The notes under the pieces: generated by a model
The model's database searches: none
What the model was told of the DNA's origin: nothing
The model's input: only the letters and a program-made list of their open reading frames with translations
Translations under genes and position numbers: made by a program
Source: Escherichia phage ECML-10
Sequence record: OL631479.1
Direction: 5' to 3' (one strand)
DNA length: 64,000 nucleotides
Shown: positions 32,235-54,456 of the stretch, in pieces
Layout of the letters: every line of letters begins with the position of its first letter
Numbering within the stretch: position 1 is the first letter of the stretch

Positions 32235-32450
32235 ATGAAGATAGAAATATTTGGTGGAGCTGACAACACTCGTGGCCTGATTTACCTTGAATTCGATGAA
32301 ACATACCTGCCAGAGGTGTTAAATATAGACTCTGTTGCTGAGGCTTTGGGAGTAAACCCTAAAGAACTCCACTCTTGTGCTGAGATCGATGGTTGGGAAG
32401 AGACCATGAACATTGATTTCAGTGAAGTAGAGGATGAACCGCTGGACTGA
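32235..32450 (+). CDS. small acidic protein, paralog family member
   Basis: MKIEIFGG..., C-terminal EVEDEPLD; last plus-strand gene. Confidence 0.45.
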   Translation: MKIEIFGGADNTRGLIYLEFDETYLPEVLNIDSVAEALGVNPKELHSCAEIDGWEETMNIDFSEVEDEPLD

Positions 32451-32577
32451 CACACAATTAGCTGCCCGGCTAAAGTGCTGGAAGCACCTATAACACATCT
32501 TTCAACTAAATTTCCCACCACCACAATCACTTACCTCCCACACATGACTGTTTGCTTGTTTAGTGAGCAGTCATGCC

Positions 32578-32605
32578 TTGACATTCTTGCCTATCCTGAT
32601 AAAAT
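32578..32605 (+). promoter_or_regulatory. sigma70-like promoter facing into ORF-poor region
   Basis: TTGACA-16 nt-TAAAAT; no credible ORF downstream. Confidence 0.4.
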
Positions 32606-34030
32606 TAAGTTCTTCTCTTTTCTTTTACCGAGTAATTCGGGTTTTCTGTTCTCTTCGGTTTGAAGGGGTATGGAGATACACCTGAGTGAACAGGGTGAAC
32701 AACCGAACATTTGGCTATGGCATTAGCATGGCGAAGCGGACGGGTGACGAAAGAGGGGCCGGAGGACACCAGTCACTGCCATATGATATATGGGTGATAA
32801 CCTGAAGAGTCTGAATAAGTGTTTAAGTACCAGTCAGAGGAAAAGGTGAATGGTAGCCGAAGGGGGAGGGGGTTTCTTGTATCTTTAATTTGTATATTAT
32901 GTATACATTCGTAAACCAATCTCATCTGAATCTGTTTACCACACAAAGTGGATAGAGACAAATATTACCTATTAAACTTGAATTATTTATAGAAAATACT
33001 ACAACACTACTTAAGTATTTGATTTTACACACAAATCCTGCAGATATTCACCCCCCATATTTAACATACTTGTAACATATTCCATACTCTACCTGACCGA
33101 TCAACTCACCCAACTACATCCTCCATATTTCCCCTGTCTGTACTACCCCTGCCCAGCCGGGAGTCCCGTCATATCTGGCTTTCCAGCAAATATCACACCC
33201 ACAAATATCATTGCCTGAAGAGGGTTTCATCCCATAATACATGCCTTACCTGAAGAGCGCTTCATATACCCCGTAAATTTTTTAATTGACACCCTCCCCG
33301 CCGCCGGAGGGGGTTGGCTTTTCCCACACAGACCCGAAGAGCCAGCCAGAAATATCTGAACAGGTCCAGCTATGCCACGATTTTGACCTGACCTACAGGA
33401 GTGCTTCCCTGTCAGGAGCCGGTAGCGACTGGAGTGCTGCCAGGCGGACGAAATGGGAATACTTCTCATTCTTATAATAATTCTCAAATATCGAGGCAGT
33501 GAGGCAAATTAATAGGTGAGGCCGTTCACACAGTGGCACAACATTTGCAACCTATCTTGTGTGGGGGAATGAGAATACCTATCATTGTGAGAATAGTTAT
33601 CATTACGGGCAATTTAACATAATACCCATTATGCGCACCACTGGCGATCCATACAGGGATTGATAACATGAGTTACTGTTTATGCATATAACAATTATAT
33701 TTCTTACTATTTGTGTGGGATATAGTTAGCAGCCAATAGATTAGATATTGACCTGTAGACTTCTGACCGTCCAGACGTCTAAACGCCCACACAACAAGGC
33801 TTATACATACATCGCTGAATGTAAACAGGGCCGCAAAAATGCTACCATACCAGATTGTAAATTTTTCATACAGCACTTGACAAAGAGGAGAAAAACTTGT
33901 CTGACACTTTAGACACAATAGTGACATAATGGTGACACACTGGGCATACTCAACACACTGGATACAATAACAGTTGTTACTATTGCATGCTTCACTGTTC
34001 ACGTATAGATTGTTTACACAGAGATGATAA

Positions 34031-34311
34031 GCCATGCCATTCGTTTGCATGACAATAATTAACTTGTTTACAATCTTTCACTGGCTATGCCAGGTGACCT
34101 TTGGTCACCCCTTCGGGTGTTTCTATGACATAATATAAAAGCAGGGCAACTATTAGAAGATCTATAGTTGCCTTGCTTGTTATGTCACGATTAACTAAAT
34201 ACAAGGCAACTATGATCTGATTAATAGTTTGCAGACAAACTATCACGGGGGTGATGGTTACTGCTTTTATATTATGTCGCGACTCCGTCGCGCCATGCCA
34301 TTCGTTTGCAT
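34031..34311. repeat. composite palindrome/iteron locus bounded by 20-bp direct repeats
   Basis: direct repeats GCCATGCCATTCGTTTGCAT at 34031 and 34292; perfect 18-bp inverted repeat GACATAATATAAAAGCAG (34127) / CTGCTTTTATATTATGTC (34261); GGCAACTAT / ATAGTTGCC palindrome at 34145-34172 with more copies at 34205 and 34310; GGTGACC..GGTCACC at 34093. Confidence 0.7.
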
Positions 34312-34924
34312 AGTTGCCTTATTGTTACGAATAAAACAATTGCATTGTTAATGATTTCTTATCTTTCTCTTAGTCATCTAATGATTCCAGTCAGTATAGT
34401 AATGTACAGTAAACATTAGACGACTAAAGATTTCTCTGTTTATTATAACTCACCGTTATAATTTCGAGCTGTTTACGAAAAATGTTGACATCCTAGCCGA
34501 TTTATGTTATGCAGTTTACACGAATAATTATTTTATGCAGGTATTGACTATTCCGTTATTCTATGGTTGGAATAAATACTTAGCAGGCTATAGACTGGTG
34601 AGCGTACGTAAATTCTGAGATCTGGCGGCTATAGTTATACTCGATTTTTCACGTAGAACACGCTTTTGTGGTTATGTAAGTGCATGAATTATAAGAATTT
34701 TTATTTGTTGACAAGATATTGAAGATATGCATCAGGTTAAAATTTATGCAATAGCGGCATTACGTGCAATTTTGGAAGGAAAAGCGTGTAAAAATGGCCC
34801 TGCTACCACACAATGAAAGGTTATGCAATAGCTATTTTACATGTATATTTGTACAGTGTGTGGGATTGATGGCTCGTCAATTATTCCACTTGCCAGGTAG
34901 GGCCGTTTGTGGTAGGAAAAGAGA

Positions 34925-34951
34925 AGACAAAAAGAAAGGGGCTTTAAGCCC
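34925..34951 (-). terminator. intrinsic terminator for the leftward gene block
   Basis: minus-strand GGGGC-uuaaa-GCCCC followed by UUUCUUUUU. Confidence 0.65.
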
Positions 34952-34972
34952 CTGACCGTTCATCTTGTTGTA

Positions 34973-35571: not shown

Positions 35572-35782
35572 AATGTTTTCCTCTCTTCTGGTTGTTGTGT
35601 GGGCACTTTTGCCCCTTCAAGATAAATGTTACCCCACCACCTGGCAGATGTCAACGGTTTTTATAGTTCTTATATGACAGGCAGGCCCGGTGATTGTCTC
35701 CCCCCGTCGCCAGGTGCCTGCCGTGTAATAAGTATAACAAAAAACAGGACCATTGCAAGCCCTGTTTTCTAGTTAATAAGGA

Positions 35783-42757: not shown

Positions 42758-43156
42758 TTATTCGTGGGCGCATGTTACAATGTGCTTTTTATAGCCTAGG
42801 TGGTCAGCAAGTGCCGACAAAAACTCTTCTTCGTAGATCCAGCCGTCGGCAGTGATCCCCATAGCATTTAATGCGCTCTCAAGTGCTGCGTTAGCTTTAT
42901 CATAACCGTGACCGCCCGCCTTGCCGCCAGTATAGCCGTACTTATTGTTCTTGTTGTCGTGTATCCAAAAAACGCAGTAGTGAGTGTTCCCGCTGGCGGC
43001 GGCATAATACCGGATCTCAGCTACTTCGTGCAAATTATTGTCATCGTCCAGGCCCACCAGATTATAAGCCTTGTAAAATCCACGATCACGGCGGCAGTTC
43101 TTGACATCAGAAAAAGAAAAGTCCGCATTATCAAAATTAAAGGTAGTGGTTTTCAT
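42758..43156 (-). CDS. hypothetical protein
   Basis: AAGAGGATAAAATC RBS; 132 aa. Confidence 0.5.
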   Translation of the reverse strand: MKTTTFNFDNADFSFSDVKNCRRDRGFYKAYNLVGLDDDNNLHEVAEIRYYAAASGNTHYCVFWIHDNKNNKYGYTGGKAGGHGYDKANAALESALNAMGITADGWIYEEEFLSALADHLGYKKHIVTCAHE

Positions 43157-43220
43157 GATTTTATCCTCTTAGTGTCTTTTGTGCTTTTAGTGTATTTTGT
43201 GTCAGGCCATATGTCAATAC

Positions 43221-43418
43221 TTATTTTTTATTAAACCAGTGGTTGATCTGGCCTTTTGTCAGGGCGCAACGATTAAGTTGGTGCCGGGTATAGCTCTGAC
43301 CGCGACGGAATTTATAAAGGCCTTGCCCGTTGTTGATGGTTACGTCCACCTGGCAAACCATTTGATCGGTGACCACCTGGCGAGTGCTGCGACGTACTTT
43401 GATTCCGTAGGCGTTCAT
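43221..43418 (-). CDS. small basic protein
   Basis: ATG after AGAGAGGATAAAAAAATC; 65 aa. Confidence 0.45.
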   Translation of the reverse strand: MNAYGIKVRRSTRQVVTDQMVCQVDVTINNGQGLYKFRRGQSYTRHQLNRCALTKGQINHWFNKK

Positions 43419-43497
43419 GATTTTTTTATCCTCTCTGTTAATTAGTGTGGTGTTGTTCACCTTGCGAGGATAAGAATAACAAGAACTGTCCGAGCTG

Positions 43498-43657
43498 TCA
43501 ACCATTAGTTAAAATTATTTTTGCCCCTGCCAGGTTAACCATCATTTTTTCGTACTCTTCTTTATGTTCCAACGCTCCCGCCATAGCCTTTTCAACCAGG
43601 GCGATAGCCTCAGCGTCATTAATAGCTACATTTTCCAGGGGGATTATATTACCTTTC
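43498..43657 (-). CDS. hypothetical small protein (53 aa)
   Basis: ATG after GGAGGTACAAAA; not in the 60-aa ORF track. Confidence 0.4.
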
Positions 43658-43818
43658 ATTTTTGTACCTCCCCTTCAATTGTTACCTATCCTATAGCATA
43701 GGCCCACCAGGTTTACAAGCCTTCATTCTCTCCTGCCTGGTCAGTTAGGTCCTGCCAGGCTGGCCCCGCCAGGTTGCAGCGGTTAGCGCATCAGGTTAGA
43801 AAAATTTTTTGAAAAGTG

Positions 43819-43950
43819 TTGACAGCGGCCCCGCCAGGTGGCACAATATACCTATCGAAAGGACGGCAGGCACCGGTGACGGGGGAGACAACCACCGGGG
43901 ATGGGCGCTGCATAAAATGAGAACGGTTATCATTATCATTTAAAAATTTA
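43819..43950 (+). ncRNA. candidate small RNA unit 1 (promoter plus ~90-nt structured transcript)
   Basis: AT-rich UP-like tract, TTGACA-17 nt-CACAAT, then CCGGUG stem with loop containing GGGAGACAAC, ending GAGAACGGTTATCATTATCATTT; no ORF. Confidence 0.35.
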
Positions 43951-43961
43951 TGCAAAAAATC

Positions 43962-44075
43962 CTTGCTTTCTTTGTCCTGTGTGATACTATAATAACAAGC
44001 CGGGGCAACAGGGGCCGGGAGACAATCACCGGGCCTGCCCGTTATTCTGCAAACGAGAATGATTATCATTCAAAA
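43962..44075 (+). ncRNA. candidate small RNA unit 2 (paralog of unit 1)
   Basis: TATAAT at 43988, then GGGAGACAATCACCGGG and GAGAATGATTATCATT, homologous to unit 1. Confidence 0.35.
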
Positions 44076-44179
44076 TTCTAAATGAGAACTCCTCGCATTT
44101 AATAAATTTAATTAGCATGCTAATTACCCTCCGTAACAATTTCCTATAAAACAGTATCCCATAAAATATTCCCATATAG

Positions 44180-44640
44180 AAATTTTAAAAATCCATTTCT
44201 GAAAACGAAAAATCGATTTCGTCCCCAAAAATTTCAGGTCGAGATCCGGAACGATTTCCAGAAAATCCGATTCAGAAAACGAAAAACAGATCGAGTACTG
44301 AGAAATTTATCGAGAAAAATTTTCAGAAAATCCAAGCCATGAAATGAAAAGTAGATCGAGTACTTGGAAAGCTGCACCGCAACTTCAAGATAGTGGTTAG
44401 ATTGTTACCATAGAAGGTTAAGGGCAAGTGGAGGAAGTTCTAGTAGAGGGAGGTTAGCATGTGTGGGAAATCTATAATGGTGGCCTGGAATATGGTGCAA
44501 ACGATAGGATGAGTTATTCAGCTTGTCGCGCCTACTCTGAAAAATCCATTTTAGTTTTCGATCCATTTTCTGATTTTCTAAGAATTTTAAAATATCCAGC
44601 CCGGTGAAATATCAAAAGGAGGAAATCCATTTTAGAAATC
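44180..44640. repeat. iteron-like degenerate direct-repeat region
   Basis: repeated CAGAAAATCC(R)ATT, GAAAACGAAAAA and AGATCGAGTACT motifs in an AT-rich ORF-free stretch. Confidence 0.6.
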
Positions 44641-44675
44641 CCCCTTACACTTGATATGCCAGGAATTTTCAAGTA

Positions 44676-45005
44676 TCAGCTGTCTTTGTTTTTAGGTTTG
44701 TACATGCGTAAAGGTATGGTCTTTGTAACATTCCATTTCCTCAATCCTTCCCAGCTCCAGTTGTGGGCGTGGTATCCGGTTATGCATGCACTACTGGAGT
44801 GATCGTAAGCATAAGAGAACGCTAAGCGCACCAGGTGGGGCCAGTCCTTCCATGGTTGTGGACCGTAAGCTTTTCTCCAACACCGACACAAACTAAATGT
44901 CTCAAGGATAGGAAGGATAACAAACCCATACACTGTCACCAAAATAGTCAGTGCAATGATTGTCAGGAACACATACCCTGCAGTTGAAATGATGATCTCT
45001 GTCAT
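44676..45005 (-). CDS. membrane protein
   Basis: AAAGGGGA RBS; N-terminal TM helices. Confidence 0.5.
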   Translation of the reverse strand: MTEIIISTAGYVFLTIIALTILVTVYGFVILPILETFSLCRCWRKAYGPQPWKDWPHLVRLAFSYAYDHSSSACITGYHAHNWSWEGLRKWNVTKTIPLRMYKPKNKDS

Positions 45006-45199
45006 TTGTCGTCCCCTTTCTTACGGATATAAATGTGAGAACCTGCCTGTATATAAATTTCTCGACCATCTTCTGCGAAGATGTGGAATACACGGTCACC
45101 TTCGTACTCAATACGAGATATCTTCATAATGGTCTTTCCACCTGGGATACGGATCTCGTCCCCCACAGCGATGTTCCATGCAGATTTAAGCTTAAACAT
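45002..45199 (-). CDS. hypothetical protein
   Basis: ATG after GGAGGGTGCAG; 65 aa. Confidence 0.45.
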   Translation of the reverse strand: MFKLKSAWNIAVGDEIRIPGGKTIMKISRIEYEGDRVFHIFAEDGREIYIQAGSHIYIRKKGDDK

Positions 45200-45437
45200 C
45201 TGCACCCTCCTTTGGGAACTTGAACTCTGGCATAGCCATATACGCTACAACAGGGTTGTGATCAAAGTAGAACTGACCGTTAATTATCCCGGTTTTACTC
45301 ACATAGTTACCAGATCCTGCAAGAACAACCTCGCAAGCTCCGAAATCTACATTGCCATCCTCATCAGCCATGGCTACGATATACTTTCCTAGAGGCATGT
45401 TTTTAACGCCGTCTACAAATGTCCACCCTTTGTTCAT
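45192..45437 (-). CDS. hypothetical protein
   Basis: CAGGAGATAAAGT RBS; 81 aa. Confidence 0.45.
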   Translation of the reverse strand: MNKGWTFVDGVKNMPLGKYIVAMADEDGNVDFGACEVVLAGSGNYVSKTGIINGQFYFDHNPVVAYMAMPEFKFPKEGADV

Positions 45438-45457
45438 ACTTTATCTCCTGCACTTTC

Positions 45458-45790
45458 TTAAGGTAACCAGTAAACAATCTCGCCTTTCAGCTTCATGTCG
45501 TTTCCAACATAAATTTCCCAGCCATCCATCTTAGCAACTGTAGGCCCAAAGTCATCCGCACCCCTTACCTCTTTCCAGGCTCCGTAGTCAGGTTGCCAGA
45601 TATAGAATCCACCTTCTTTGTCCCATGCTCCGTACACTACGTTTAACAGGTTTCCCATTGCAACAATGGTGGGCCGTGGGAATAATACATCTACAGATGC
45701 GCCACAATTTCGGGTATCTTTTAAGTTGCAATCCCAAAAGATGTCTGCCAGTGTGGCGGCGATAGCTTTACGTCTTTCTAATGTTACCAT
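45458..45790 (-). CDS. hypothetical protein
   Basis: 110 aa ORF. Confidence 0.45.
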   Translation of the reverse strand: MVTLERRKAIAATLADIFWDCNLKDTRNCGASVDVLFPRPTIVAMGNLLNVVYGAWDKEGGFYIWQPDYGAWKEVRGADDFGPTVAKMDGWEIYVGNDMKLKGEIVYWLP

Positions 45791-45799
45791 GTATCATAC

Positions 45800-45991
45800 T
45801 CACTTGTTGTTAATAAGTTCTAAAACTTTCTGTCTTACTTTGTCAAGGTCTGTTGATTCAAAAACTGTGCGATATCCCCAACTTTGCCCATAGGAGTGAC
45901 TGCAATCTCCGTAGCACCATTGCTCAATTTGATAGTATTCAAGGAAGGGGTGCTGTCTAACTATGATGCCATCCCGGTTAAAAATTACCAT
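45800..45991 (-). CDS. hypothetical protein
   Basis: 63 aa ORF. Confidence 0.4.
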   Translation of the reverse strand: MVIFNRDGIIVRQHPFLEYYQIEQWCYGDCSHSYGQSWGYRTVFESTDLDKVRQKVLELINNK

Positions 45992-46054
45992 AATACGTCG
46001 CTCTCTGTTAGTCTGTGCGTATATTATACACTGTAGTTTTCAGATGTCAATCTT

Positions 46055-48152: not shown

Positions 48153-48214
48153 TTTTCAGATCTCCTTATACAAAAATGCCCCACCCTTTCGGGCAGGGCT
48201 ATGTTAGTTAGGTG

Positions 48215-48838
48215 CTAAAAGTATTCATAGAGGTATCCATCTGGGGCTGGAATTTTTTCATGAATGTAGTAATCAACACATATTCCGGTTTCTCTTCTGC
48301 AAGAATTGTGGGATACCCATTCTTTGAGAACGTTGCCATTCATGTCCAGCCTCCTTACATTTTTACACCGTCTACCGCTGGTGCTTCTATGCAACAGAAT
48401 ATCCTCTGTCTGCTTGTCTTTATTTTCTCCCCAAGTCGTTAAACGGATATTATCAAAAGAGTACCCTTTGAAATCATCTATCCTGTCACAAGAAGGCTTT
48501 TTCCTTTTGTCGTATCCGCTGGCTACCCACTGGTCATACAACTCTTTGTAACCGTTTAGGTATAGCCACTCCTTAAACTCTTTTTTGGTGTAAGTCGGAG
48601 GTGGGTGACCTCTCTTCTTACTGTTGCACTTTTGAGTCTTGTACAACACGCGGATCACACCTTTTTCTGAAGAGTCGTGGGAAAATTGGTCAGCCTCCCT
48701 GCTGGCCTTCTTGCAACACTCTTTGCACTTATTAAGATGACCGTCAGACATCTTTGGGTGTTTGTAGAACTCGGAGAGGTTTTTCACCTCTCCGCACTTG
48801 ATGCACCTCTTACAATGCGTGGATTCTACTTTTGCCAT
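48215..48838 (-). CDS. zinc-finger protein, possible nuclease or DNA-binding protein
   Basis: start at [16 protein letters not shown] after GGTGGG; CxxC...CxxCC cluster; function not recognisable. Confidence 0.4.
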
Positions 48839-50081
48839 ATTGCAAACCCACCGGAGCGAAAGGTATGTCATCACAGAAGTCGTACTGTGCTGGATTCTGA
48901 TCCATCGGGTCATCTTCCTCATCATTTACAGGAGGGGCGTCTACAGTGTTTTGCTGTGGAGCTGCTTCCTGTTTGGCAGCCTGAGGTTCTTGATGGTCAG
49001 TTGACCCAGCACCGTTCTTGATCCAATCGTACAACGGCTCAGCCAGATTAGTCAAGACATCTTTTGCTTCTACAGTAATTGCCGCTGCAAAATCATCAAC
49101 TTTCGTTTTCTTGTCAATACGGCGACAAGCGTTCAACACTGCATTACCGACACTGGCACCTACTTCATCTTCAGTTCGGTTGGTGGCTTGAGCATACTCT
49201 TTCTTAAGCTCAATGGTGACTACGTGCAGTGTTTTAGCCACGCCCAGTGGGTCGTCTACCTTAAACCCGCGATCCAGGATGATCTGCAACGCATTGATGC
49301 TATGCCCCGTTTCCACACCGATAGGGTCGTAAGAGGATTTACGCTTGCCACCGGAGCCTTGAGTGCCGTTCTCTGCCTTAGGAGGATAGGCCTTGAAACC
49401 ACTGATAATGTTTCCAGTGTCTTTGTCAACAATGGCTGCAACACGACCACCTACCACCAGGTCTTTAAGCTGCTCATCAGTGACAACCATAGCACCTTCG
49501 CCAATCTTGTGGTCATTAACAGTAACCACGTTGCCAACAATCTGAGTCACATCACCATAGATGCGTAAAACGTCCTGATTGGCATTCTGCTGAGGTTTCT
49601 GCTTCTGGCCTTGTGATTGTGCACCTTGTTGCTGTTTTTGCTGCTGAGTCGCTGCTGGAGCCTCTCCTGCACCCAGCTTGACCATCTTAGCCAGTGAGCC
49701 TTTGTAATAGGTCTTACCGTTATGCTCGTTTGCCTTCAAAGGGATATTTACGATCCATCCTGGCGTTACGGTTTCCCACTTGTCATCAATCTTAACAGAG
49801 ACAGAGTCTTGATGCCCCGGTTTAAGCAGCTTATCACCCATGCTGATCCAGACTTCTTCACCGCCTTGAAGCAGGTTATCAGAGGAATCCAGTTCAGAAA
49901 TCAGTAAAGAGATAGTGTGGCTGGATTCAATTTTCTTACCTTGCCACACGGTGGTTTTAATACCTGTTGCAGGATCAGCCCCTTTAATAGGTTTAATGCT
50001 AACACGCTTGATCATGCCGTGAGCCAGTAAAACAGTTTCACGCGGATTCATCGGGTTAGCGAATTGTTGAATAACGCTCAT
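48810..50081 (-). CDS. putative ssDNA-binding protein (SSB-like acidic tail)
   Basis: AAGGAGA RBS; Gln-rich linker; acidic C-terminal region ...[23 protein letters not shown] resembling the bacterial SSB DDDIPF tip, followed by a 15-aa extension. Confidence 0.45.
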
Positions 50082-53613: not shown

Positions 53614-54456
53614 CATCTGTTCAGGTAGGTCGTTAAGCTACCCCGCACCATTACGTGCATAGCCATACAGTTTCCTGTATGGATCGGACTACCTCACTGC
53701 CTTGGTAACAAGGCACCTCCCATTTCGACCGCACTTGCTGGCCTACTCTACTCGCTTCTTCACACCAACCTGTGTTGGAGCTATGCTTTCGATAGTCTCT
53801 GAACGTTACTACCAGGTGTAGTTTTTAGAGATATGTTTCCACTGTCTTCTTTGCTTTATAGCCCTGACGGTCTCATAAGGATATCCAAGATCCCTAATCT
53901 CGCATTGTCGTAGACCACTCTGCAACAGTTCGCAAATCTCTATTACCTCATCTTCTGTCAGCACAGCGTTGGCATTATACTCACCAACTGGCCTTACTCT
54001 GAGGTCATTATCATAGGCGTGCTTGATATTTCCACCAGGGGTGGTCCATTCCAGGTTCCAGTATGCATTGTTGTACTTATTCCCATCCTTATGGTTCACC
54101 CATGTGAGCCTTTCAGGATCTGGGTTTGATACAAAGCATTCAGCAACCAGGTGGTGGACACCTTTTGTGCACTGCTTCCCCTCGATTAGCATGGTTACGC
54201 AAAGGTAACCTCTACCATTATCAAAACAAAACATTGTTGTATGATCACGTTTCGATAAAGGTATTGTTCCATCATCAAACACGGTATACCCGTGATAATC
54301 AGCTGTTCTAGCCATTTTAACTACACCCCTTTAGTCTTCGCTGCGGATTAGCATATTGAGCTTTTACCATACTCAGGTGTAAAAGTCAACTTAGCTTTCC
54401 CGTCAATTAAAGAGGTTATTCGACATAGATCACTCTATGAAGCCACAATGTTATTT
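53614..54456 (-). mobile_element. group I intron in the DNA polymerase gene carrying an HNH homing endonuclease ORF
   Basis: exon 1 ends ...IIYYH then K-stop, exon 2 starts DE: the insertion sits inside the HDE motif; exon 1 ends in U and intron ends in G on the coding strand; about 840 nt. Confidence 0.65.
53809..54315 (-). CDS. HNH homing endonuclease (intron-encoded)
   Basis: motifs GVHHLVAECF and WVNHKDGNKYNNAYWNLEW typical of the HNH family. Confidence 0.8.
   Translation of the reverse strand: MARTADYHGYTVFDDGTIPLSKRDHTTMFCFDNGRGYLCVTMLIEGKQCTKGVHHLVAECFVSNPDPERLTWVNHKDGNKYNNAYWNLEWTTPGGNIKHAYDNDLRVRPVGEYNANAVLTEDEVIEICELLQSGLRQCEIRDLGYPYETVRAIKQRRQWKHISKNYTW

Follow-up and report, generated by a model that had tools for sequence, protein, structure and literature searches.

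Among the small early genes of Escherichia phage ECML-10 lies a stretch crowded with repeated motifs, which raises the question of what these repeats are for: small proteins, RNA, or DNA that is read by a protein. The locus was studied in a window of 64,000 nucleotides (the whole stretch of DNA analysed; record OL631479.1), which belongs to the genome of a Vequintavirus, an rV5-like E. coli myophage. The 3 kb around the array share 94-98% identity with more than 100 Vequintavirus genomes, including rV5, JES2013, MaxTheCat, and FV3. The array is located inside a gene-free gap of approximately 1 kb (43660-44675) within a long run of small leftward early genes, in agreement with the placement between leftward gene blocks given in a previous description from the letters of the DNA (here called the sequence-only reading). 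That description suggested an iteron-like array that could serve as a replication origin or as a binding array for a phage or host protein. Of the two roles, the binding array is well supported by the comparisons described below, while the replication origin is plausible and has points against it.

Anatomy of the repeat array

The repeat content of 44170-44640 was compared with chance, the test that the sequence-only reading had named for its own refutation, and none of 300 dinucleotide shuffles of this interval equalled it. There are 16 exact 10-mer pairs (0.5 +/- 1.0 in the shuffles), and the best ungapped diagonal score is 24.5 (9.8 +/- 1.1 in the shuffles). The AT-richness ascribed to the stretch is likewise present, with 37% G+C at 44170-44640 vs approximately 43% for the window. 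GAAAACGAAAAA (starts 44201 and 44275) and AGATCGAGTACT (starts 44288 and 44353) were each reported twice, and both occur at these positions and nowhere else in the 64-kb window; in the 135-kb genome of MaxTheCat, GAAAACGAAAAA and the 10-mer GATCGAGTAC (from GATCGAGTACT) are restricted to the syntenic gap. The two direct repeats, described as roughly 65 bp, measure approximately 62 bp (44244-44305 and 44309-44370, 76% identity), and the degenerate and inverted copies were found as a third copy at 44170-44231 (61%) together with short inverted copies that link the left and right parts.

The motif CAGAAAATCC(G/A)ATT, by contrast, had been counted at least five times and has only one exact copy (44259), with two copies of CAGAAAATCC itself; at up to three mismatches, three copies lie in the gap, and the window-wide count is no higher than chance. 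A shorter core recurs instead. AAATCCATTT is present three times, every copy in the gap and on the + strand, and four of the five window matches of the degenerate core AAAWMCRWTTY are in the gap on the same strand (44189, 44263, 44542, and 44623), with near-copies at 44328 and 44559. Over the whole genome, four of its seven matches fall in the gap, in one orientation.

The array is composed of three direct units of 62-74 bp, followed by a centre of 167 bp and a right arm with more copies of box A. Each unit consists of an A/T tract followed by box A (AAATCCrwTTy) and then by box B (GATCGAGTACT; GATCGAG[T/A]AC). Compared with the middle unit, the units have identities of 61%, 100%, and 76%, at spacings of 74 and 65 bp. 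Box A is found three times in the left arm, each time 26 bp ahead of box B, and again in two or three copies in the right arm approximately 190 bp onward. The parts are as follows:

44170-44231, + strand: left-arm unit 1, degenerate but aligning in register with units from other genera; box A AAATCCATTTC (44189), GAAAACGAAAAA (44201), and box B decayed to ATCGATTTCG
44244-44305, + strand: left-arm unit 2; box A AAATCCGATTC (44263), GAAAACGAAAAA (44275), and box B AGATCGAGTACT (44288); box A 26 bp ahead of box B
44309-44370, + strand: left-arm unit 3; A/T tract GAGAAAAATTTTC, box A variant AAATCCAAGCC (44328), and box B AGATCGAGTACT (44353)
44372-44538, no strand assigned: hypervariable centre of 167 bp, length kept; G-rich on the + strand, GC skew +0.5 to +0.7
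44539-44640, + strand: right arm; AAATCCATTTT (44542 and 44623), CGATCCATTTT (44559), inverted copy TCTGATTTTCT (44569-44579), and AAATATC(A) (44590 and 44607)

The array differs from classical tandem iterons of 17-22 bp: the 11-nt core recurs four to six times in one orientation, but it is embedded in composites of 62-74 bp and split over two arms. Tandem Repeats Finder gave nothing beyond a trivial 12-bp repeat because indels distinguish the units. Inside the units, no conserved sigma-70 or phage late promoter was recognized by eye on either strand, and a promoter scan likewise returned none.

The arms and the centre evolve at very different rates. Between ECML-10 and rV5, 34% of sites differ in the centre vs 1-2% in the arms and 4% at the third codon positions of four flanking genes, so that the centre diverges about eight times faster than neighbouring synonymous sites. 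Between clades, its divergence is 33-35% vs 4-15% at the third codon positions of flanking genes. Across 103 records, the identity of the centre runs continuously from 100% to 68%, and its length is steady at 167-168 bp. A segment of fixed length that outpaces synonymous sites in its evolution could, if confirmed, become a subject of study in its own right.

Upstream elements and conservation of the module

Upstream of the array, the gap contains a series of elements on the + strand, antisense to the flanking genes:

43707-43834: cluster of five CCWGG sites, in and just right of the densest 200-bp CCWGG stretch in the 64 kb
43819-43847, + strand: promoter P1 (TTGACA-17-CACAAT), rightward and pointing at the array
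core 43885, + strand: small structured RNA copy 1, a GC-rich stem-loop element downstream of P1
43919-43937: Fur-box-like site GAGAACGGTTATCATTATC, 15 of 19 matches to the consensus, after small RNA copy 1
43963-44050, + strand: predicted promoter P2 (TTGCTT-16-TGaTACTAT, recognized by eye), together with small structured RNA copy 2 and its conserved loop GAGACAATCACC at 44019
44054-44068: Fur-box-like palindrome CGAGAATGATTATCA, 7-1-7 form, 12 of 14 matches
44083-44097: degenerate second Fur-like box TGAGAACTCCTCGCA, 29 bp from the first box
44109-44126: perfect 18-bp palindrome TAATTAGCATGCTAATTA, unique in the MaxTheCat genome, with the core TTAGCATGCTAATTA invariant in nine genomes
44133-44192: AT-rich segment of low stability, ranked third among the least stable 60-mers of the 64 kb; it directly precedes unit 1 and extends into it

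The -10 region of P2 is conserved across genera, and the second small-RNA-like element (approximately 43954-44118) was found by sensitive blastn of the gap in other Vequintavirinae genera and in Phapecoctavirus. The small RNAs have a common stem-loop architecture in single-sequence folds, with modest z-scores. Rfam gave no match over the whole window at gathering thresholds and noise alone over the gap at permissive E-values, and a search for tRNAs found none. The Fur-like palindromes of the gap are so named by comparison with the Fur consensus, GATAATGATAATCATTATC, and its 7-1-7 form, TGATAATnATTATCA. At up to four mismatches, two of the three genome-wide matches to this consensus fall in the gap, and in Certrevirus and Phapecoctavirus three to four Fur-like boxes are present with the same 29-bp phasing. 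Their placement directly after phage small RNAs is a separate observation that, if confirmed, could likewise be pursued by itself. These palindromes keep one sequence across genera, whereas the boxes of the array drift between genera. The segment at 44133-44192, located 140-200 nt downstream of P2, is a candidate unwinding element.

The array itself aligns by blastn within Vequintavirus only, and other genera were compared by direct reading of the syntenic gaps of PVP-SE1 and LNA4 (Seunavirus), KpS8 (Mydovirus), Serratia phage Kashira, KaOmega, POP15, and PBES02 (Certrevirus), and Hena1 (Henunavirus). In each of these phages, a gene-free gap of approximately 1 kb contains three direct units, 63-78 bp in length, that line up in register with the ECML-10 units, and the comparison with related phages that the sequence-only reading had called for thereby showed the geometry of the array to be kept in other Vequintavirinae genera. 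The units share an A/T tract (AAAAATTTTTTCG) and a box B (GAAAAnCGATCGAG[A/T]AC) across genera, while box A reads GArAATACGwT in most, AAAATCCGATT in ECML-10, and AAAATCCATTTT in Hena1; in Seunavirus, the box A copies are inverted. In unit 3, box A is exactly 26 bp ahead of box B in ECML-10, PVP-SE1, LNA4, and KpS8, and the first right-arm box follows the box B of unit 3 at +188 in ECML-10, +190 in LNA4, +191 in PVP-SE1 and Hena1, and +193 in KpS8. Phapecoctavirus has different repeats at the same place, and the boxes of the array are therefore lineage-specific.

Within Vequintavirus, 111 of 116 records match the left arm at 90% identity or more. Conservation of the two arms is close to that of the adjacent genes (approximately 78-94% invariant columns in seven genomes), and 44541-44580 is nearly invariant among nine genomes. 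The proteins that flank the gap in other genera have no homologue in the ECML-10 window; these flanking proteins are unrelated between genera, and the non-coding module is therefore better conserved than its neighbours. Pattern scans of IMG/VR for two or three GATCGAG boxes at unit spacing gave, among the matches listed, none with the small-RNA core upstream. Judged from these alignments and readings, the array is part of a putative non-coding control module of approximately 1 kb that is conserved throughout Vequintavirinae, and this module appears to be the most conserved non-coding landmark that could be found in the subfamily.

Protein, RNA, or DNA site

Coding capacity was assessed by counting the variable sites per codon position (1/2/3) in an alignment of seven Vequintavirus genomes, with flanking genes as controls:

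44676-45005, - strand: control gene, variable sites 9/8/35
42758-43156, - strand: control gene, variable sites 5/2/35
43221-43505: third control gene, with a weaker bias, variable sites 6/6/13
left arm: 47-aa ORF, variable sites 10/12/8
centre and right arm: 99-aa ORF annotated in HMD-6, variable sites 17/15/19, with in-frame stops in two genomes

The stretch had been called free of ORFs, which is correct in so far as the ORFs tested have no coding signature and incorrect in that mechanical ORFs of 46-53 aa are present, some of them annotated in deposited records. In the 47-aa ORF, two codons have synonymous-only changes vs 20 with amino-acid changes, and the centre shows no codon periodicity. 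That the stretch encodes small proteins, with the repeats being incidental or duplicated small genes, is a reading with some outward support: a 48-aa ORF on the + strand follows a good Shine-Dalgarno sequence and is similar to PHROG 35702 from end to end, and a further full-length match was to PHROG 14993. However, the 48-aa ORF has only 15 codons in rV5, ORF lengths vary among relatives (34, 70, 84, and 99 aa) because of frameshifts and stops, and annotators call different ORFs in the gap. The two PHROG matches can be explained as echoes of annotations in close relatives, from which these families would have been built, and several of the "hypothetical protein" annotations across the gap in public records are probably spurious. 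The tested candidate ORFs lack the third-position bias of the two strong flanking controls, and the coding reading was rejected on this ground, with hardly any likelihood left to it.

A role as RNA is improbable as well. In this case, a long non-coding RNA transcribed rightward from P2 (P3 in other genera) would include the array, and either the repeats would bind an RNA-binding protein or the centre would fold into a functional domain. Rightward promoters are indeed located upstream, and the + strand of the centre, although 34% divergent, gives a consensus fold with 92.6% of cells paired and with six pairs that change on both sides, at a consensus energy of -18.4 kcal/mol vs -3.4 kcal/mol on the - strand. 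Against this, the centre folded as a single sequence does not outperform shuffles (z = -0.25), and the shuffle controls (8-18 of 500) are within the range that the tool reports for unconstrained alignments. Furthermore, 22 units from six lineages, aligned in register, have no consensus base pair, the Rfam search described above gave no match, and box A is inverted in Seunavirus, which would be tolerable for a DNA site and not for an RNA motif.

Two known types of repeat were also considered and rejected. CRISPR arrays have identical repeats of 28-37 nt and unrelated spacers of constant length; here, similarity spans the whole unit, the spacing is 63-78 bp, and the copies are 61-76% identical, which fits neither a CRISPR array nor solitary CRISPR repeats. 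Similarly, the RNA repeats of type III toxin-antitoxin systems (ToxI-like) are tandem, approximately 34-45 nt long, folding, and placed beside a toxin gene, whereas the present units have no fold, form no array detected by Tandem Repeats Finder, and have no family match in the adjacent genes.

The motifs are unique in the genome, non-coding, and devoid of an RNA fold, and they stay in register at fixed distances across genera whose flanking genes are unrelated; for these reasons, there is good support for the prediction that one or more sequence-specific proteins assemble on the array, which would act in cis as double-stranded DNA. The boxes drift between genera, whereas the Fur-like palindromes are constant, and this contrast, together with the uniqueness in the genome, the single orientation per genus, the A-tracts, and the fixed distances, points to one or more phage-specified binders that would form a complex of fixed geometry. 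A sequence that is free to change between arms held at a fixed length apart would be expected if the proteins bound to the two arms must meet through a loop or wrap whose size is set.

Candidate roles and comparison with known systems

The role proposed for the array, tentatively and with somewhat less than an even chance of being right, is that of a phage replication origin of the transcription-activated kind. Host RNA polymerase would start at the rightward sigma-70 promoters P1 and P2, and transcription would cross the Fur-box-like sites, by a presumed read-through, into the AT-rich segment at 44133-44192. The array with its bound protein would then help to open this low-stability DNA or keep it open, after which the T7-type primase-helicase and the family-A polymerase of the phage would load. 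In favour of an origin, P1 and the conserved P2 region are aimed at the array, the promoters are directed into a downstream AT-rich segment of low stability as expected of an unwinding element in a transcription-activated origin, and conserved boxes alternate with spacers that are fixed in length and free in sequence. A promoter joined to an AT-rich element is the pattern of the T7 primary origin and of T4 oriF and oriG, and conserved boxes with fixed-length, free-sequence spacers are the classical pattern of enterobacterial oriC. According to its annotation, the phage encodes both a family-A polymerase and a T7 gp4-like primase-helicase. The origin of rV5 was previously sought by skew analysis and not located (PMC3606486).

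Several points stand against the origin. No initiator gene was found beside the module, and a Pfam search with eight flank-derived proteins gave DUF7170 alone, which is on a small rightward ORF of two genera. The changes in GC and AT skew at the site are the reverse of those that a bidirectional origin should give. Searches of plasmids and of the E. coli genome revealed no similarity to known origins, the single "plasmid" match being a phage genome. In addition, a second and larger ORF-poor region at 32450-34970, between convergent transcription units, contains additional Fur-like boxes as well as the DNA of lowest stability in the window, and it is an equally legitimate origin candidate.

The same arrangement can be read as a packaging site or as a site of transcription control, both of which are less likely than not to be the main role. 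A pac site, which is an unlikely reading, would have the small terminase bind both arms and cut in the centre, and it may double as a rolling-circle origin. Two repeat clusters around a free centre of fixed length are what a bind-here, cut-there layout would look like, and repeated cutting and repair could explain the fast evolution of the centre. P1 pac is controlled by methylation; most of the other genera have four to six GATC boxes per approximately 200 bp, and the phage encodes adenine methyltransferases. In ECML-10, however, GATC is not enriched, with four per kb in the gap vs 5.5 per kb overall. Most characterised pac sites are located in or beside the small terminase gene, whereas the module is approximately 77 kb from the large terminase gene in a genome of 135 kb; in MaxTheCat, this gene occupies 683-2230, far from the module at 78.4-79.4 kb. 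Promoters, small RNAs, and host-factor-like sites are not expected at a pac site, and none of the deposited records examined begins or ends at the array. The packaging reading nevertheless agrees with the rV5-like genome being circularly permuted or headful-packaged (PMC3606486; PMC13211470), and ICP1, the polymerase of which is related, has a pac site and a predicted rolling-circle origin in an ORF-less space of 1.3 kb (PMC7145576).

Transcription control, for which there is a modest chance, would make the array a set of operators or roadblocks for a phage or host regulator. These would either keep the rightward small-RNA units apart from the leftward early operon, through termination or insulation, or time the switch from early to middle expression. 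The gap has rightward promoters between leftward gene blocks, and transcription would therefore converge over the array. A strong intrinsic terminator is absent, the one hairpin present being weak and AT-rich (44232-44195, - strand), and RNA read leftward from the centre is rich in C and poor in G, with less structure than shuffles (z = +1.6), resembling a Rho-loading site. The small RNAs also lack terminators and are followed directly by Fur-box-like palindromes. On the other side, other genera do not share the C-richness of the centre (skew -0.19 to +0.39), the confinement of the boxes to the array would imply a regulator with a single target site, and approximately 450 bp with six or more sites and a fixed spacer of approximately 190 bp is elaborate for a terminator or insulator.

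An extended form of the origin reading, which is speculative and carries little probability, treats the whole module of approximately 1 kb as an iron-gated, transcription-primed origin with a Fur roadblock on the phased boxes, comparable to a D-loop-like control region. Host Fur would act as a roadblock that sets the 3' ends of the small RNAs and gates the entry of polymerase into the unwinding element and the array, while the fast centre would be an exposed initiation or R-loop zone or a specificity cassette exchanged via the conserved arms. If true, the start of replication would be coupled to the supply of iron for the ribonucleotide reductase of the phage itself.

The literature searched describes neither the module nor the origin of a Vequintavirus, and it gives no pac position. 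Control regions that are rich in repeats and act in cis are familiar elements, and it is the composite layout and the subfamily-wide conservation that appear to be undescribed. The rV5-like phages (Vequintavirinae) are common therapy and biocontrol candidates against E. coli, Salmonella, Klebsiella, and Cronobacter, and the module offers a concrete target of approximately 1 kb for the mapping of an origin or pac site, for the search for the reader of box A and box B, and for shuttle or amplification vectors. Knowledge of it would also help in engineering these phages without damaging an essential cis element.

Several known systems share parts of this layout. The animal mitochondrial control region (D-loop) is also approximately 1 kb long and non-coding, with promoters, conserved blocks, hypervariable segments that evolve faster than synonymous sites, and a transcription-primed origin; the likeness is an analogy of layout without homology, transcription priming in ECML-10 being hypothetical. 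The ORF-less region of Vibrio phage ICP1 is likewise a geneless stretch of approximately 1 kb with cis-acting genome functions in a lytic myophage with a related polymerase, although it was mapped experimentally by read coverage and is likened to the ECML-10 gap by its description (Barth et al., PMC7145576). P1 pac and SPP1 pacL/pacC/pacR have in common with the array two clusters of short repeats around a centre, headful packaging, GATC repeats (in other genera), and phage-owned adenine methyltransferases, but the site of ECML-10 is far from the terminase, three to four times larger, and furnished with promoters, small RNAs, and Fur-like boxes.

The T7 primary origin (1.1A/1.1B with an AT-rich segment) and T4 oriF and oriG (a promoter with an unwinding element) resemble the module in having tandem promoters that lead into an AT-rich segment, and in the pairing of a T7-type primase-helicase with a family-A polymerase, for which a dedicated initiator is not needed. 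They differ in having no large repeat array or second arm, and the host sigma-70 promoters of ECML-10 would first drive conserved structured small RNAs. Compared with bacterial oriC and the iteron origins (lambda ori; P1, F, RK2, and pSC101), the units of ECML-10 are three-box composites of 62-74 bp with neither an adjacent initiator gene, nor a DnaA box, nor sequence similarity. What they share with these origins is the arrangement itself, namely, direct copies of a motif beside an AT-rich melting segment, host-factor-like sites mixed in, and conserved boxes with spacers that are free in sequence but not in length.

Small structured RNAs and the left edge of the module

The gene-free module (43660-44675) that holds the repeat array also contains a GC-rich, promoter-driven stem-loop element, which is found in three copies in the window:
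43850-43915, plus strand, stem-loop copy 1
43995-44050, plus strand, stem-loop copy 2
about 35640-35760, minus strand, stem-loop copy 3

The copies keep the loop GAGACAAyCACC, and copy 2 is kept across Vequintavirinae and Phapecoctavirus; its outer stem, judged by eye, seems to carry compensatory changes. The element has no match in Rfam and carries no intrinsic terminator. The counterpart of copy 3 in the relative MaxTheCat is covered by a 90-nt "hypothetical protein" annotation.

In other genera (loci L009-L012), the left edge of the module carries a small plus-strand ORF, upstream of the small RNAs, that belongs to one of two unrelated types: a DUF7170 protein of 60-63 aa (PVP-SE1 gp201 and KpS8 gp122) or, in Kashira and anhysbys, a protein of 88 aa in which one stretch looks like a helix-turn-helix. 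Neither type is present at this edge in Vequintavirus.

Approximately 130 bp around P1 (43707-43834), a rightward promoter upstream of the array, contain five CCWGG (Dcm) sites. Four of these fall within 43584-43783, which has more CCWGG sites than any other 200 bp of the window (six, versus three in the next best). MaxTheCat encodes a Dcm-like cytosine methyltransferase.

Array centre and an ORF-poor region at 32450-34970

The centre of the array (44372-44538) has kept its length while diverging about eight times as much as synonymous sites of the flanking genes, which could reflect hypermutation, allele exchange, or diversifying selection.

An alternative candidate for the origin or pac is the ORF-poor region at 32450-34970, approximately 2.5 kb long and flanked by convergent rightward and leftward gene blocks, which is probably the "non-coding" box on the rV5 genome map. 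It possesses several promoter-like TTGACA sites, exact direct and inverted repeats of 18-20 nt (34031/34292 and 34127/34261), and a 60-mer (at 32960) less stable than any other in the window, together with paired CAAATATCA motifs at about 33185-33215 that resemble the right-arm motifs of other genera.

Public records and window-specific stretches

Sixteen records titled "Campylobacter phage" (host C. jejuni) share 95-96% identity with E. coli Vequintavirus over 43000-46000, an identity that suggests mislabelled or contaminating phages. The PLSDB "plasmid" CP057073.1 (E. coli, cattle faeces) shows a 93% match to the array region, and its size of 137.6 kb makes it look like a Vequintavirus genome.

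Two window stretches of approximately 650 bp, 48206-48858 and 53747-54397, are without counterpart in MaxTheCat. The latter, which includes a 168-aa minus-strand ORF (53809-54315), may be a mobile endonuclease insertion; it adjoins the DNA polymerase gene, annotated in MaxTheCat as joined from two pieces.

Palindromes of the module and the ORF-poor region

Fur-box-like palindromes (TGAGAATnATTmTCA), matching the E. coli Fur consensus at up to 15/19, occur in both the module and the ORF-poor region, those of the module immediately after the small RNAs and followed by a perfect 18-bp palindrome:
43918-43937, 44054-44068, and 44083-44097, Fur-box-like, module
44109-44126, TAATTAGCATGCTAATTA, module
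33454-33468, 33570-33584, and 33588-33602, Fur-box-like, ORF-poor region

The 18-bp palindrome, placed between the Fur-like boxes and an AT-rich segment, occurs once in the MaxTheCat genome; all nine Vequintavirus genomes compared share its core unchanged, and the palindrome is absent at the corresponding position in other genera. Certrevirus and Phapecoctavirus have three to four Fur-box-like copies with a phasing of 29 bp. The Fur-box-like sequence is unchanged between phage genera of differing hosts; such constancy is what putative binding sites of a conserved host protein would show.
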